A stretch of DNA of 64,000 nucleotides, from contig CM000153.2 in assembly GCA_000004695.1 (NCBI GenBank), forward strand, positions 5,376,001-5,440,000. The letters run 5' to 3'. Shown here in pieces: positions 1-60,719 of this stretch. Below the pieces are notes generated by a model, which was not told where the DNA came from, did not search any database, and was given only the letters and a program-made list of their open reading frames with translations. Numbering within the stretch: position 1 is the first letter of the stretch; every line of letters begins with the position of its first letter. Origin of the DNA: Dictyostelium discoideum. Lineage: Eukaryota. The position numbers and the translations under genes were made by a program.

Positions 1-443
1 TTGTAAACGAAAAAAAAAAAATAAAATAAAAAATGAAAATCCGCTTTCTTCTTCGAATTAGGGTGCTTTTGAATAAAAATAAAATGATAATAAGTATATC
101 AATAAGAAGTAAAAAATGCAATTGCATTATCCAATTCAAAATTAGATTGGGGGTGGCTTATATGAGAAATTGAGCAGTTCTATGGAAGGAAGACCTAATG
201 GTTTAAGATTAGCTTCAACCATATGTTCGAATCCAAACTTAAAAAAAAATAAGTGACAGTATCAAAAAAAAAAAAAACTGTACCCCAAGTTTTTCTATTT
301 TTGTAAAAAAAAAAAAACACTACTCCCACATTGTTGTTCTACTTTTTGATTTCCAAAAAAAAACATCACAAAATACCCACAGTTTTTTCTATTTTTTGAT
401 TTTCAAAAAAAAAAAAACAACACAAAACACCAAAATACCTTTT

Positions 444-1009: not shown

Positions 1010-3410
1010 AACCATCAACTATTTTTGTTTTTTAAATAAAAAAAATAAATAATTATAATAAATAATAAAAAAATCATTGAAATCTAATTTATTTTAAAAA
1101 TTTTTATTTTATTTTTTTTCATTTAATTTTTTTTTTTTTTTCAGTATAAATAAATTATATTTACATAATACCACTATTACACCATTACTACTACTACTAC
1201 AACTACCAACTCATACTGGCAATATATTAATATTCAATTAATTAATTACTTTTTTAGTTTTAAATTTTGGAAAAAACAAATAAATTATTTAAATTTTTTT
1301 TTTTTTTTTCAAATTTAAATAAAACAACCAAACTTCAATCTTGATTAATTTTAATTATAAAAAAATAGTAAATTATAATTATAAAAAAGTAATAAATTTA
1401 TGAGAAAATTTTAAGTTTTTAAAAAAAAAAAAAAAAAAAAAAAAGAGTTTGTATTAAAATGAAAAGAACTCACTTTACTGTTAGATAATATTTTTTTTTT
1501 TTTTAAATATATTCTTTCTATTTTTTACAATTTAATAAAAGATTTATAATAAAAATAAAAAGCAGAAATAATTATTTTATATTAAATTTTATTTTATTTT
1601 TACCTATTAAATGTTCGGAATAGGTAAACCTTTAATTTTAATTTTAATTTTATTTTTTTTCTTTCCTTTCTTTCTTTTAATTTTATTGACTATAACTATC
1701 CCACCATCTAATCCACCAACGTAATTGTGGACTTCTGTTTGATATCAATATATCAAAACCTTCTGAAATTGTATTATCAAATTGAAATTTATTATTATTA
1801 TTATTATAATAATTACTATTTAAATTTATCATCGATGGACTATTACTATTAGATTTTTTAAAATTAATTGAAGTTATTGATTCTAATATTAGAATTTTAA
1901 AATTTTAAAAGATTAATATATTTTGAATTTAAAATAATAAGTTTATATTTAACTTTTTGTATTTTTTTTCTTTTTTCTTTTTTCCTTTTTTTATTTAGGA
2001 GAAATTCAAATTTAAAATTATTTAACTTACTTATTAATGTCATTTTATTTTACTTGGATATTTTAAACTAACTGCTTTATTCAGTTTTTATGTTTTTGTT
2101 TTTTTTTTTTTTTTTTTTTTTTATATACTGATTTTTAAAATAAAATTCTAGAATAATAAATTTAAAATTTTCATTAAAATAAAATTTTGTTAATTATTTT
2201 ATCGGAATTTCAAATTGACAAAAAGAATTTTTTAAAAATACAAACCAAAAATAGATTTTATTGGTTATTATTAAAAAAAAAAAAAAAAAATAATTATCTT
2301 ATTGCTTTCTAAACCCTTAGTGTGGTGCAAAAAAAAAAATTTAAATATATTGGATTTTTTGGTTTAATTTAAAATCTAAATGTGTTTAAATTTAAATTTA
2401 AAATTTTATTTATCTTGATTTTAAAAAAAAAAAAAATATCAAGATTAAAAAAAAAAAAATAAAAATAAAAAAAGAAAGAACGAAAAAAAAAAAGATTTTA
2501 AACTTCAATTATTTATTTTAATTATTTTATTAATAAAAATTATTCTTTTTATTTTTTAATTATTTTTTTTTTTTTTTTTTTTTTAAAATACTCCTAAAAA
2601 TAGACTAATGTAAAATAATTTTAATTTTATTTTTTTTTCAAATAAAAAATTTAATGTTAAAAATAAATGCTGAAAATTTTATAATTTTATTAATTGGTAT
2701 TAACACCACTACCATTATCATAAAAACCAATATTTTTTTAATTTTTACAAAAAAAAAAAATTAAAAAAATATCCCACAGAATCATATTCTGAATATTAAA
2801 ATTCCCAAATATATATAAAAAAAATAAGATTCTCACAATATTTTCAATGATATAATTTCAATCTAATATCTAGTTTTTGAAATATCTATTATTTGAAAAA
2901 TATTTATATAAAATTAAATATTATATATTTAATTTAATTAAATAAAATAAAATACATTTTAAAACAACCTACCCCTTTTTTTTTTTTTTTTTTAAACTAA
3001 AAATTTTAATTAAAAATTAAAGAGTGGTGATTTTTTTTTTTTTTTTTTTGGTATGTGAATATTATTAATTATCACCATTTAATTTATAATACTGGTGAGT
3101 TGAAATATCTAAACACCCCAATAGTTTACTATTCCCCCCCTTTAATTTTCTCTTTATAATTTAGTAAAAAGTGAAATTGAAAAAAAAAGAAAATTATATA
3201 TATCTAATTTTATGGTATGAATATCCTATATAAGATGATTAAAAAAAAAAAAAATTGATTATTTAATTATTTTGAATTTTTAATAATTTTTATTATTTAA
3301 TTACTATTTAAAAAATCTTATTTCCTTTTGTTATAATTTTTTTATAAATGTATTTTTCAAATATATTTAACCATTGATGATCATTTTTTAATTTAACAAT
3401 TTCAAATTTA

Positions 3411-3450
<40 letters not shown>

Positions 3451-3641
3451 TTACCAAAACATTGAGATAAGAAATAATAATAATAATAGGAGGTTATATT
3501 TATTAACCAATTTCACTTTAATTGTATCTTGCTTTTTTCCTAATTAAAAAAATAAAAAATAAAAAAATTTTTTAAAAAAAAAAAAAAAAAAAAAAAATTT
3601 TATTTATAAATATAATCAATAAGGAGGGAATTAATTAAAGA

Positions 3642-3675
<34 letters not shown>

Positions 3676-3966
3676 ATAATATATAATTAAAAGAACAAAG
3701 ATTATCTAAAATAAAATTGATAATTAAATATTATTAAAAATATAAATACTCTTTAATTTAAAAAGTTTATTATTTTCATTTCCCAACATTTTAATTAAAA
3801 ATGAATTTAATTTCTTTTTTTTTTTTTTTTTTTTTTACCTCTTTAATTTGATTTATAAAGGAGAATTACCTACTTTTACTTTTTATTATTTTTTTTTTGT
3901 TTTTTTTTTTTATTTTTTTTTTTTATTTTTATTTTTTATTTTTTTTTTTTATATTATTTAATTAAA

Positions 3967-5914
3967 TTAAAAAGCTTCATCTTCATCAATATCTTCATCA
4001 TCTTCATCATCTTGATCAATTTCTTCTTGTTCATCATCGTCATCTTCATCATCATCATCTTGCACTTGTTTAGATGAAGTTGAAACAATACCAAATTTCT
4101 TTTTAAGTTTTTTATTTTGTTTTTTCAATTGTTTATTACTTTGTGGATTGAATTGATCATTTTCATCTTTAAGATTTTGAGATTTTGATTTAATTTGAGC
4201 AACTTGTTTAGCTGTTGCTTTAACCACTTGTTTTTGTTGTTGATATTTAAGTAATGCTTCAGAATCTGAATCTTCTTCCATTTCATCTTCATCTTCTTCA
4301 TCTTCTTCATCTTCTTCATCTTCTTCATCTTCCATTTCTTCCTCTTCTTCTTCATCATCATCTTCATCTTCATCTTCCATTTCTTCTTCATCTTCTTCAT
4401 CATCATCATCAAATAATGAATTATCTAATTCTTGTTGTTTTGGTTCTAAATATTTTAAAGAAGCAAATGAAGTATTTTGATTTGAAACAGTTGAAATTAA
4501 ATCAGATTGATCAATATTTAATTCATCAGAGAATTGTGAAAGTAAAGTTGATTTAACTAAAACTTTTGGTGGTTGAGTATAGAAAGGAATTTTACCACCA
4601 GTCCAATCACGAATGACACTAATGGCGGTAGAACGTAAATCAGCGATACCACCTTTAACGATTTTCTTACGTTTAGCAGCAACTTGAGTTAAGAAATCAG
4701 TGGTTGATTGATATTGAGCGATTTCATAGATATCTAAAATTTGTTTTTGAGAACAACGTGAAAGGATAGCATCAACTGGTGCGATTGGATCTAAAACTTT
4801 CTCCAATTTGACAACATTACGAAGAATGATATTCTCATCGACATTTCCTTTAATTGGTACGATACCTGGTGAATCCAATAGCTTGACATTCTTATCCAAA
4901 TGAACCTCTTGAGCAAACTTTGTGAAACCAGGAGTTGCACCAACACCAACGGAACGAGTACGTTTCAAAGAGTTGATTAAAGATGATTTACCAACATTTG
5001 GATAACCAATGATACCAACGGTTACCGAAGTTTTAATATTAAGTGAACGACTATAGTTTTTTAATAGTTGAAGTAATTGTTCGGCACCTAAACTCTCAGT
5101 ACTATTCAACATATCATTTGAGGCCAACTCTGGTTGAATACCACCTTGTTGACCAAGATTACGCTTTTGTTGTTGTGTTGAACATTTGAATGCCAAAGTT
5201 GGGTAGAAATTACGTAAATATTTCAACCACATCAATACATTTTCACGTGGTACCAAATCAATCTTATTCAAAATCAATACAATCTTTTTATTTGTATAAC
5301 GTTCTAATATCATTTTCTCAATCTCTAAACAACGACAACCCATTGGATCACGAGCATCCAATACTTGGAGAATGACATCACCAGCCTCGATCACCTTTTT
5401 AACCTCTCTATAAAATTGTTTCAATGATGAATCTTTACCTTCCTTTTCAAATTTACCTTGTTGTTTTTGTTGTTGTTTCAATTGTTGACGTTCTTGAAAT
5501 TCAGATTCACGACGTTTTGCATCGGCTGCCATCGATGCAATATCTCTTCTTGCTTCTGCCATTTGTTCCAATCTTCTCTTTTCTTTTTTATTCTTTTTCT
5601 CTTCTGATGCTTTTTGTTTTTGTTGTTCAATCTTATTTAACATATCCTCTTTAAATGGCCATAAATTTGGAATACCTGGATCTTTTCTACTTTTATTTAA
5701 TTCTGGGTGTTGTTTTGCAAATCTTTTAACTTTACGATGATGTTCTGCTACTTTTTTTAAAACTTTATGTTTATGATGTAAACTTTGACGTTTACTTGCA
5801 GTTTCTTTTTAATTATTATTAAAAAATAAAAAAAAATAAAAAAATTATTAATAAAAATAAATAAAATAAAAAATTTTATATAATAATTTTTTATTAATAT
5901 TTACGTTTTCCCAT
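3967..5914 (-). CDS. Nucleostemin/GNL3-like nucleolar GTPase. complement(join(3967..5804,5905..5914)), about 615 aa.
   Basis: The tracked ORF has the circularly permuted GTPase motif order: G4 [10 protein letters not shown] precedes G1 [14 protein letters not shown] and DSPGIV. It has a basic N-terminus and a long acidic D/E tail. The frame stays open upstream of the tracked Met as [55 protein letters not shown], which matches the GNL3 N-terminal domain. A 10-nt first exon ATGGGAAAAC (5905..5914) with a GTAAAT donor, and an AAAAAG acceptor at 5805, complete it as MGKQTASKR... The intron is 100 nt. Confidence 0.85.
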
Positions 5915-53342: not shown

Positions 53343-59050
<5,708 letters not shown>

Positions 59051-59308
59051 AATAAAATATTTGTTTTTTTATTTTTTTTTTAATCAATTATTTTAATTTT
59101 TTTTAAAAGATTCCATAAAATTGAAGTTATTTTTTTATAAAAAAAAAAAAAACATATAAAATAAAAAAAAGAATAATAGAAATAAAAATTTAAATATATA
59201 TTTTTTGACCTTTAATTTTTCAAAAAAATCTTCCAGACGACCATTTGCAAATGGTAGAAATTATTGAAACGAACCAATATTGCTTTCATTTTAAAAATTT
59301 CCAAAAAA

Positions 59309-59390
59309 GTAAGCTTGCCCGAGCTGGTCTAAGGGGTTGCATTAAGGCTGCAATATCATTGATACAAGGGTTCGAATCCCTTAGCTTACA
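59309..59390 (+). tRNA. tRNA-Leu, anticodon AAG, type II, 82 nt, copy 1.
   Basis: Acceptor stem GTAAGCT/AGCTTAC. Anticodon stem TTGCA/TGCAA with loop TTAAGGC (anticodon AAG, G37). A variable arm, and a T-arm AAGGGTTCGAATCCCTT. Discriminator A. Confidence 0.85.
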
Positions 59391-59421
59391 AATAATTTTT
59401 TCAAAAAAAAAAGAGATCAGA

Positions 59422-59432
59422 GGATCGATTCC
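59422..59432 (+). promoter_or_regulatory. ex-B box (extra B-box) 32 bp downstream of tRNA-Leu copy 1.
   Basis: GGATCGATTCC, a duplicate of the T-arm B-box consensus, at the position typical for Dictyostelium tRNA genes. Confidence 0.6.
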
Positions 59433-59439
59433 ATATTGA

Positions 59440-59920
59440 AAAAAATCTCTCGAGTTGTTTGGATATGATAGATTTGAAATTTTTGGCTTGTTCGTTGTTT
59501 GTAGCTTTTTTTTCTTGTCTAATTAGTTTGAATATGTAGTTTTTGGTTCTCTCCCACGCTACGTATTGCGTTTTTTTAGTTCGTGAAATATTAATATTTC
59601 CTTTCTTGGGTTTTTGAGGGTGATTCCTTCATGAACTTTTTGTTTCTTCTTCTCCAGATGTTTTCGCATATAATGGCTATTGTATTGGATGTTAAAGAAA
59701 TACCTAGTTTGTTGAGAACTTCAATACCCCATACAATCCTGGACCTCCACTTTTCTCTTGTACGTAGTTTATGCAGTTTAAATAATTTGTAATTGAAATG
59801 AACTTTTTTTTTTGAATTATATAACGCAATTATTAGTTGCTTCTCCTTGAGCTTTGAAATGAAATAATTTTTTTTTTTTGAATTTGAAATGAAATAATAT
59901 TTTTTTTTTTTTTTTTTTCA
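59440..59920. mobile_element. Insert of about 480 bp, less AT-rich than the flanking intergenic DNA, between the two tRNA-Leu copies. Possibly a truncated tRNA-gene-targeted retroelement (TRE) remnant.
   Basis: G+T-rich, unlike the flanking spacer. It ends in a T-run about 15 bp upstream of tRNA copy 2 and begins just after the ex-B box of copy 1, both known TRE5/TRE3 integration positions. It contains an internal 24-bp direct repeat (TTTGAAATGAAATAAT...). No ORF or recognisable module, so the identity is a guess. Confidence 0.2.
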
Positions 59921-59935
59921 GAAATTTTCAAAAAA

Positions 59936-60017
59936 GTAAGCTTGCCCGAGCTGGTCTAAGGGGTTGCATTAAGGCTGCAATATCATTGATACAAGGGTTC
60001 GAATCCCTTAGCTTACA
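59936..60017 (+). tRNA. tRNA-Leu(AAG), copy 2, identical to copy 1.
   Basis: Same 82-nt sequence. The duplicated unit is about 140 bp: about 20 bp of 5' flank, the tRNA, and the ex-B box. Confidence 0.85.
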
Positions 60018-60050
60018 ATTAATTTTTCAAAAAAAAAAAAAGAGATCAGA

Positions 60051-60061
60051 GGATCGAATCC
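60051..60061 (+). promoter_or_regulatory. ex-B box 34 bp downstream of tRNA-Leu copy 2.
   Basis: GGATCGAATCC. Confidence 0.6.
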
Positions 60062-60308
60062 AGTGTTACGAAAAATTGATTTTATATTTTATTTTTATTT
60101 TATTTTTATTTTATTTTTATTTTTTTATTTTCGGTATTAACAAACCGAACTTCGTAAAAATAGCAATATATTTTACACCAGATTGAAAACAATGGTAAAA
60201 TTAATAAACCAAAATTTCCATGCGAAGTTCATCAATCTTTATCTCAATCAATCACTCTTTAAGATTATTTCAATAGTAGTATTTTCTATGCTCAGATCCT
60301 AAACTTCA

Positions 60309-60491
60309 CTAAAAAAAATAGGTAAATATTGATATTGATATTGATTTTGATTCTGTGAAATTTTCAATTGTTTTCCTAGAATTTTTATTTAACTCTTGTT
60401 GGAAATCATTAAACTTTCTGTGTGCATCATTGAACTGAAAAATATTAAGTACCCCAGCCAAAACTGCTATATTTTTTAATTTTATGAACAT
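60309..60491 (-). CDS. Speculative small secreted peptide, about 60 aa.
   Basis: ATG at 60491 opens MFIKLKNIAVLAGVLNIFQF (signal-peptide-like), then NDAHRKFNDFQQELNKNSRKTIENFTESKSISISI... The upstream part of the tracked ORF is poly-A derived. Confidence 0.2.
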   Translation of the reverse strand: MFIKLKNIAVLAGVLNIFQFNDAHRKFNDFQQELNKNSRKTIENFTESKSISISIFTYFF

Positions 60492-60719
60492 ATTTTTATT
60501 TTTTAAATTTCTCTTTTGATAGCTGTTGGACTTGATTTTCATTCAAAATATTGTAGAATAAAATCAATCTTTAGTATTAAAAATTTTTGATTATTAATTA
60601 AAATGAAACCATAGTGGAGAAAGGAACTCCTTAAAATAATTTAAAAAAATAAATAATTCCTTAAGGAATTAATTGAAATAATTGATTTTATTCATGAAAT
60701 AATAAAAATTTAATATATT

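Follow-up and report, generated by a model that had tools for sequence, protein, structure and literature searches.

Two tRNA-Leu(AAG) genes lie on the plus strand of the window (the whole stretch of Dictyostelium discoideum DNA that was analyzed, 64 kb in length), at 59309-59390 (copy 1) and 59936-60017 (copy 2), with a gap of 545 bp between them. Both were called by ARAGORN and by Rfam (RF00005, 50.8 bits, E 1.5e-9 for each gene), and they are identical at 82/82 nt, confirming what a preliminary description of this DNA had said of them. A scan of Rfam matched the tRNAs only and nothing else. The B-box pattern GGWTCGAWTCC has four matches in the 64-kb window, where the number expected by chance is 0. 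Two of the four are the internal B boxes of the genes, starting at 59369 and 59996 (that of copy 1, 59369-59379, plus strand, reads GGTTCGAATCC), and the other two are external copies in the 3' flanks, referred to here as ex-B following PMC5911963. The ex-B of copy 1 (GGATCGATTCC, 59422-59432, plus strand) starts 31 nt past the end of the tRNA, and that of copy 2 (GGATCGAATCC, 60051-60061, plus strand) 33 nt past it. Both genes fit the Dictyostelium type, with a cloverleaf, an internal B box and a second B box in the 3' flank; they look functional and are presumably active.

The similarity between the two genes continues into their flanks, including ex-B. Self-BLASTN aligned 59264-59433 with 59884-60062 at 87.7% identity over 179 columns, which defines a duplicated unit of ~170-180 bp. 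The preliminary description had recognized this unit of flank, tRNA and ex-B, and had correctly placed an ex-B downstream of each tRNA, but its estimates of ~140 bp for the unit and of 32-34 bp for the ex-B spacing need to be replaced by the values given here. Within the unit, 100% identity is confined to the tRNA, while the flanks show substitutions (~12% divergence) plus indels, with 37/60 columns identical in the 5' flanks and 39/45 in the 3' flanks up to ex-B. By self-BLASTN and flank alignment, the 5' flank of copy 1 (59264-59308, plus strand) is uninterrupted and homologous to 59883-59935; judging by this alignment, it shows the pre-insertion state of the target. Its 53-bp counterpart, the 5' flank of copy 2 (59883-59935, plus strand), was delimited by that homology and is the native DNA separating tRNA copy 2 from the TRE5 insertion site. 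Dictyostelium is known for pairs of tRNA genes with identical anticodons (PMC8163159). The original extent of this tRNA duplication can no longer be read, because retroelement debris has replaced the whole spacer between the copies.

This spacer (~450 bp) has a GC content of 30-37%, compared to 9-19% in the adjoining intergenic DNA, and its plus strand carries a strong excess of T, with an AT skew reaching -0.47. As previously described, it is a segment unlike normal intergenic DNA, but both of its boundaries had been misplaced. The foreign DNA does not start right after the ex-B of copy 1 but 11 nt past it, at 59443, which is 53 nt downstream of tRNA copy 1. Likewise, the TE-derived DNA ends not 15-35 bp but 53 bp upstream of tRNA copy 2, at 59882, and a T-run that had been counted as part of the insert belongs to the 5' flank of copy 2. 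A word-indexed protein search with a 102-aa minus-strand frame from the spacer gave no match; the relatives emerged through an exhaustive HMMER search, which matched the spacer to Dictyostelium non-LTR ORF2 tails (E 2.5e-10) named in UniRef as 'Reverse transcriptase zinc-binding domain' proteins. A profile search with the spacer frame returned matches from Dictyostelium exclusively (37/37). These results support the view that the spacer consists of decayed TRE5 remnants on the minus strand, stacked by two or more insertions. The earlier proposal of a TRE remnant at this tRNA gene is thus borne out by HMMER, by BLASTN and by a piece of C-module, although a single insert does not account for the spacer.

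The remnant adjoining copy 1, TE-1, was delimited by HMMER, profile search, blastx and BLASTN as a TRE5-C-like non-LTR element truncated at both ends (59443-~59790, minus strand), with homology that is firm over 59443-59775 and uncertain over 59776-59790. It contains the 3' part of ORF2 from just past the zinc finger, interrupted by at least two frameshifts and by in-frame stops, and the blastx match is spread across three minus-strand frames. Only the last ~115 codons of ORF2 are retained, the APE, RT and finger regions being absent from the window. When stitched together, the TE-1 translation is 75% identical to DDB_G0293280 (P0009), relatives of which carry a CX2C..H..C finger just upstream of the matched tail, and 40% identical to the TRE5-A-type protein P0019. 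Both P0009 and P0019 come solely from strain AX4. At the nucleotide level, the closest relative of TE-1 is a copy at another D. discoideum locus, L003 (positions 3262-3593; BLASTN, 88% over 335 bp, E 1e-118), followed by two copies at locus L001 (74-77% identical).

The alignments to the reference copies end at 59443, which is an internal point of the element. As every comparison with a reference copy stops there, this left junction is not an element terminus; a blastx overrun to 59428 reflects a coincidental TGGAA. An assignment of the ex-B of copy 1 to the element was considered and rejected, the two tRNA units being clearly homologous there. TE-1 stops ~100 bp short of the end of ORF2 and has no A-run, C-module, oligo(A) tail or target-site duplication; the tail and the duplication are missing along with its 3' end. 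The reconstructed 5' end of TE-1 lies 53-55 bp from tRNA copy 2, in opposite orientation.

Reference copies show what such an element looks like when its 3' end is retained. One L001 copy (3884-4748, 865 bp) lies 46 bp upstream of a tRNA-Ser(GCT) gene in opposite orientation, is flanked by a target-site duplication of 13 bp whose two copies agree at 12/13 positions, and follows the order ORF2 stop, A-run, C-module, oligo(A). The TE-1 relatives at both L001 and L003 have no 3' B-module, the ORF2 stop and A-run being followed by a C-module that is 70-74% identical to that of TRE5-A. TRE5-C as described in PMC3159450 likewise lacks a 3' B-module, and its C-module shares 78% identity with the TRE5-A one. 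The subfamily labels, TRE5-C-like for TE-1 and TRE5-A-type for the second remnant described below, are inferred from such published descriptions and from the anatomy in three loci. A point against the reading proposed here is that L003 and L004, out of three loci carrying TRE5-C-like copies, have no tRNA gene within 3 kb.

The second remnant, TE-2 (59804-59851, minus strand), is an extremely 5'-truncated TRE5: all that it contains is the terminal 38 nt of a C-module of TRE5-A type (CTCAAGGAGAAGCAACTAATAATTGCGTTATATAATTC) and an A10 tail. It was compared to a TRE5-A stack with duplicated A and B modules, ORF1 and a C-module, located ~48 bp upstream of a tRNA-Thr gene and bearing a 14-bp target-site duplication (L002); TE-2 matches the C-module end of this stack at 95.8% over 48 bp, and at 36/38 positions in the core. 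T15, C26, A35 and C38 (numbered from the 3' end), the C-module stem nucleotides that were mutated in PMC3159450, are present in TE-2 as well as in the reference copies of TRE5-A type. Although only 38 nt survive and the diagnostic bases are few, these bases suggest TRE5-A rather than TRE5-C as the source. As read from the sequence, TE-2 is enclosed by an exact 10-bp target-site duplication, TTGAAATGAA, with its distal copy at 59793-59802 and its proximal copy at 59854-59863. Target-site duplications measured for this TRE5 group are 10-15 bp long, and in both its A10 tail and its 10-bp TTGAAATGAA duplication TE-2 has the marks of a TRE5 insertion. Between TE-2 and the flank of copy 2, an exact 15-bp direct repeat, TTTGAAATGAAATAA (59853-59867 and 59883-59897, minus strand), was read on either side of a T12 run and GAA (59868-59882). 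The interval 59853-59897 may be either a third TRE5 stub, made up of TTC and an A12 tail between target-site duplications of 15 bp, or flank that was simply duplicated in tandem over 30 bp.

TRE5 elements insert upstream of tRNA genes in opposite orientation, typically at 44-54 bp and overall at 37-95 bp, and TRE5 copies stacked upstream of one tRNA gene have been documented (PMC5391098). At this locus the distance to copy 2 is 53 bp, with TE-1 and TE-2 on the minus strand and the tRNAs on the plus strand. Taken together, it is likely that two functional-looking tRNA-Leu(AAG) genes stand here in tandem and that the space between them is taken up by stacked, dead TRE5 remnants, all of them aimed at copy 2, which we propose as the target of the insertions. 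The mechanism has been established in the literature for TRE5-A, and we infer that it also operated here. [quoted passage not shown] Each newer insertion would enter between the tRNA and the older copy, displacing the older copy outward. In the history that we propose, the TRE5-C-like TE-1 would have inserted ~53 bp upstream of copy 2 and decayed through frameshifts and stops, after which a TRE5-A event at the same site would have left the 38 nt of C-module and A10 of TE-2. The third step would be either the additional stub or a 30-bp slippage duplication. Finally, through one deletion with 3-4 nt of microhomology, TE-1 would have lost its terminal ~240 bp and an older tandem tRNA duplication its original spacer; this would have placed the truncated TE-1 immediately beyond ex-B, 53 nt after the end of copy 1.

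This deletion of the TE-1 end and of the original spacer is the most likely account of the left junction, with a probability somewhat better than even. The junction near the ex-B of copy 1, which the preliminary description had regarded as an integration site, would then be a secondary breakpoint internal to the element. Nothing of the presumed original spacer is left at the locus. It is also conceivable, though unlikely, that a single TE-1 insertion with a target-site duplication of ~180 bp made both tRNA copies, in keeping with the suggestion in the preliminary description that the duplicated unit was associated with an insertion event. In this scenario the second-strand nick would be at -53 and the priming nick just past ex-B, 53 nt beyond the end of the tRNA. 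Microhomology would have primed reverse transcription at an internal point of the element RNA, so that TE-1 would have been without its 3' end from the start. The layout is exactly unit-element-unit, with the unit homology stopping at both element junctions, but this is also expected if a larger tandem duplication was followed by insertion and deletion. Microhomology of 3-4 nt (AAAT) at the left junction, a loose similarity between the element and the flank after ex-B, and a flank divergence of ~12%, which would fit the age of TE-1 as judged by its 12% difference from the nearest relative, all speak in favor of the long duplication. However, it would be far outside the 10-15 bp measured for this group of elements, its priming nick would be ~170 bp away from the normal place, and tRNA pairs without an intervening element are common (PMC8163159), one pair with identical anticodons and no element between its members being present at L001. 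If the long duplication were nevertheless true, TE-1 would have created the tRNA pair, a complete promoter-bearing tRNA gene having been copied as a giant target-site duplication; if it were also recurrent, the unusually high number of tRNA gene pairs in Dictyostelium would stem in part from retrotransposition aimed at tRNA genes. The breakpoint lies 11 nt beyond the ex-B of copy 1, a placement that a long-target-site-duplication insertion would explain without a separate deletion. Also considered was 3' transduction, in which a read-through transcript would have carried the copy 1 unit along; it was rejected, as no tail or target-site duplication was detected left of 59264.

Other origins of the spacer are far less probable. 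[quoted passage not shown] Of the two kinds of integration position named in the preliminary description, it is accordingly the TRE5 position upstream of copy 2 that fits, and not that of TRE3. Unique functional host DNA (a small gene, a promoter or a non-coding RNA) is given the same very low probability. The GC content is at exon level, and one minus-strand frame stays open for 108 codons, a length reached in only 45 of 5000 shuffles. However, this frame has no start codon and is one of three that jointly rebuild a retrotransposon ORF2 tail, Rfam matches nothing other than the tRNAs, and homologous copies at unrelated loci already contradict a unique sequence. A DGLT-A (H3R) solo LTR or a Skipper-2 fragment is the least probable of all. 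DGLT-A inserts 13-33 bp upstream and Skipper-2 8-23 bp downstream of tRNAs, distances that would suit the boundaries first proposed for the insert, but not the true ones, and the size is unlike that of LTRs of 265 and 208 bp, respectively; moreover, the content is that of a non-LTR ORF2 tail and a C-module with oligo(A).

TRE5 remnants beside tRNA genes are an ordinary, well-documented and already known feature of Dictyostelium genomes. The present case matters mainly for annotation: what fills the GC-richer spacer is dead TRE5 material, neither a gene nor a regulatory RNA. Among the 'hypothetical proteins' annotated in recent Dictyostelium assemblies, several are ORFs that read through stacks of this kind. 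It also provides a compact textbook case of repeated targeting of one tRNA gene, in which an older TRE5-C-like copy would have been displaced by a later TRE5-A stub. In the neighboring SNF2/RING gene, the relatives found for the C-terminus are all at most 45% identical.

In comparison to known systems, TRE3-A to TRE3-D have a related ORF2 with a C-terminal zinc finger and target the tRNA/ex-B downstream region, where the left end of the insert falls; they differ from this locus in running in the same direction as the tRNA, whereas TE-1 and TE-2 run against it and the left junction lies inside the element. TRE5-C, an L1-like element represented by degenerate 3' parts only (879-bp partial consensus), shares its anatomy with the TE-1 relatives, including the 865-bp copy at L001. 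TE-1 itself differs from it in being truncated at both ends and in retaining none of the C-module, tail or target-site duplication. The active TRE5-A (DRE), which has A, B and C modules, differs from TE-1 in its ORF2 tail (only 40% identical at the protein level) and shares with TE-2 the end of the C-module, the stem nucleotides, the oligo(A), the insertion site and the orientation.

Exactly two tRNA genes were called by ARAGORN in the 64 kb, both tRNA-Leu(AAG) on the plus strand (copy 1, 59309-59390; copy 2, 59936-60017), and each was matched by Rfam at 50.8 bits, with no other Rfam match in 58800-60400. The two genes are identical at 82/82 nt, and each combines a cloverleaf tRNA containing an internal B box with a second B-box copy in its 3' flank. 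A pattern search for GGWTCGAWTCC returned four sites in the window and none in 100 shuffles, two being the internal B boxes and two the external copies (ex-B). The preliminary description correctly gave each tRNA one ex-B, although the distances from the tRNA end are 31 nt (59422-59432) and 33 nt (60051-60061) rather than 32-34 bp, and its duplicated unit of roughly 140 bp measures ~175 bp by self-BLASTN (59264-59433 versus 59884-60062, 87.7% identity over 179 columns). Within this unit the flanks have diverged, with 37/60 columns identical on the 5' side and 39/45 on the 3' side up to ex-B.

The spacer between these twins is as unusual as had been proposed. Its GC content of 30-37% lies above the 9-19% of adjacent intergenic DNA (21% for the window overall), in keeping with the suggestion of a less AT-rich insert, and its plus strand is strongly T-rich. 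The proposed boundaries had to be moved, as foreign DNA begins 11 nt past the ex-B of copy 1, not immediately after it, and stops 53 bp upstream of copy 2, not 15-35 bp. No start-codon open reading frame longer than 53 aa is present in the spacer; on its minus strand 108 codons are open but lack a start, and 45 of 5000 shuffles gave an open frame of that length. In a word-indexed protein search the frame had no match, and an exhaustive HMMER search gave four proteins (best E 2.5e-10), from which a profile was built for a wider search. This profile detected 37 proteins, all but one JGI protein from Dictyostelium discoideum, D. cf. discoideum and D. citrinum, which where named in UniRef are "Reverse transcriptase zinc-binding domain" proteins and which contain a CX2C...H...C finger followed by ...INWGIEIFNRLDIPLTANAIAIICENIWRRRNKK.... 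By blastx, the spacer encodes the tail of these relatives in three minus-strand frames, from ~59775 down to ~59443, and the translation stitched over the frameshifts is 75% identical to DDB_G0293280 over 114 aa, against only 40% for the P0019 type of relative.

Nucleotide and translated alignments define this remnant, TE-1, as a TRE5-C-like ORF2 tail at 59443-59775, possibly to 59790, with its sense strand on minus. References were four D. discoideum loci (L001-L004) carrying relatives of the spacer element. TE-1 aligns to L003 3262-3593 at 88% identity over 335 bp (E 1e-118), having lost 1 nt at two points and gained 3 nt at one, and is 74-77% identical to two copies at L001. No reference alignment extends past 59443: TE-1 breaks off after ...CAACTCGAGAGATTT, at which point the references go on AGCAAA..TGGAAC. 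Some 240 bp are therefore missing from TE-1, comprising ~100 bp at the end of ORF2 as well as the A-run, C-module and tail.

The complete 3' structure is seen in the 865-bp L001 copy (3884-4748), which is oriented away from a minus-strand tRNA-Ser(GCT) whose 5' end is 46 bp distant. The ORF2 stop of this copy, TAA, is also the start of a 33-nt A-run; a C-module of ~100 bp ending ...ATTGCGTTATTCTATTC plus A8 comes next, and a 13-bp target-site duplication (TGTTCTCGCAGAA versus TGTTGTCGCAGAA) brackets the copy. On the far side of the L001 copies (2310-2433 and 4780-4900) are tandem units of ~39 bp, composed of the first ~17 nt of tRNA-Ser(GCT) and ~22 nt of its 5' flank; these units could represent either a minisatellite or reiterated target-site sequence. 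At L002, a TRE5 stack ~48 bp upstream of tRNA-Thr(AGT) contains a duplicated A-module, a B-module both 5' and 3' (327 bp, 97.6% identical), an ORF1 of 444 aa, C-modules ending ...GCGTTATCCAATTC plus A13 and a 14-bp target-site duplication, TCGAATTCATGAAA. As this is the published TRE5-A anatomy, AB-ORF1/ORF2-BC (PMC3159450), the ORF2 tail of P0019 and P0040 is of TRE5-A type. The TRE5-A-type C-modules carry T15, C26, A35 and C38, counted from the 3' end, exactly the nucleotides changed in published C-module stem mutants (PMC3159450).

Published TRE5-C lacks the 3' B-module and has a terminal C-module sharing 78% identity with its TRE5-A counterpart, while TRE5-B lacks a C-module (PMC3159450); TRE5-C is listed solely as an 879-bp partial consensus (PMC5006619), close in length to the L001 copy. 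Because the L001 and L003 copies have no B-module between ORF2 and C-module, share 70-74% of the last 87 nt of the C-module with TRE5-A, and because the L001 copy comes close to the published length, we infer the name TRE5-C-like for the family of TE-1 from published descriptions rather than from a reference alignment. TRE5-C-like copies and TRE5 stacks at L003 2800-3835 and L004 2540-4440 have no tRNA gene detectable within 3 kb, and some copies of the family are no longer beside their target. Several annotated "hypothetical proteins" in recent Dictyostelium assemblies (L002 8001-8779, L004 3001-4176; P0006, P0029, P0031, P0040) share the N-terminus MKITNNTTNIKQHKCLQKISEI. They are artefacts of annotating TRE5 stacks, read-through ORFs that begin within the C-module of one TRE5, or a little before it, pass through that copy's oligo(A) tail as KKK and extend into what is left of ORF2 in an older TRE5.

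Alignment to L002 identified a second remnant, TE-2, at 59804-59851, a TRE5-A C-module stub with tail, also sense on minus. It reads CTCAAGGAGAAGCAACTAATAATTGCGTTATATAATTC plus A10, matches the L002 C-module end at 36/38 positions (95.8% over 48 bp with the tail), and is flanked by an exact 10-bp repeat, TTGAAATGAA, at 59793-59802 and 59854-59863. At 59853-59897, an exact 15-bp repeat, TTTGAAATGAAATAA, stands on either side of T12+GAA, which on the minus strand is TTC plus A12, the final three C-module bases and a tail. Either a third insertion that kept almost nothing of the element or a plain tandem duplication of 30 bp would account for this arrangement.

The only other match to these elements in the window is at its far left edge (70-139, plus strand), where ...AAAATAAAATGA...AATTGCATTATCCAATTC plus AAAA resembles a degenerate TRE5 C-module end and shares 79% identity with the TRE5-A C-module of L002. 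The body of that element would lie outside the window. A B-box-like TGTTCGAATCC follows at 226-236, and ARAGORN called no tRNA near either site. Upstream of copy 1 is a large SNF2/RING-finger helicase gene (53343-59050, plus strand) that encodes long Asn and Ser-Asn repeats and is interrupted by a single GT..AG intron at 53914-54002. A stretch of ~26% GC at 60128-60300 begins ~110 bp downstream of copy 2, the usual TRE3 position; it showed no similarity to the TRE-derived probes used here and may be the 3' part of a minus-strand ORF at 60309-60542.

The one question at this locus that merits follow-up is whether an insertion made the tRNA duplication. Homology between the two units extends to ~59442 (CCATATTGAAAA versus CCAGTGTTACGAAAA) and element homology starts at 59443, with an overlap of 3-4 nt (AAAT); the copy 1-side junction is not an integration junction. 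We consider it probable that the tRNA unit was first duplicated in tandem, that TRE5 elements would then have inserted upstream of the second copy, and that a single deletion would have taken the 3' end of TE-1 with the remaining spacer, a history from which unit homology ending at both junctions follows automatically. The literature records such tRNA gene pairs (PMC8163159), and at L001 two tRNA-Ser genes are separated by 4.4 kb. It is rather improbable that a single TE-1 insertion, with nicks ~180 bp apart and internal priming, instead produced the tRNA unit as a giant target-site duplication: measured target-site duplications are 10-15 bp and the priming nick would fall ~170 bp from the usual site, and for these reasons duplication before insertion is favoured. 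Neither history is favoured over the other by flank divergence or by the age of TE-1. Judged by order along the DNA, TE-1 would be the oldest, outermost insertion and TE-2 a later one.

[quoted passage not shown] TRE5 integrates 44-54 bp upstream of tRNA genes (overall 37-95 bp; PMC5006619, PMC5911963), always with its 5' end towards the tRNA, whereas TRE3 shares the orientation of the tRNA and lies 40-150 bp downstream of it (PMC5911963). With later additions removed, the 5' end of TE-1 falls 53-55 bp from copy 2 in the reconstructed target. The preliminary description had proposed a TRE remnant between the twins, which is borne out by ORF2-tail homology, the C-module stub and the target-site duplication; of the two integration positions it had invoked, the TRE5 site upstream of copy 2 holds, and the TRE3 site after copy 1 is contradicted by orientation. 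The evidence supports reading the spacer as dead TRE5 remnants stacked upstream of the second tRNA-Leu(AAG), namely an ORF2 tail of TRE5-C-like type and a C-module stub of TRE5-A. At copy 2 the TRE5 rule is followed in position and orientation as well as in 5' truncation, tail and target-site duplication, and the spacer is a known family behaving as described rather than a novel one.
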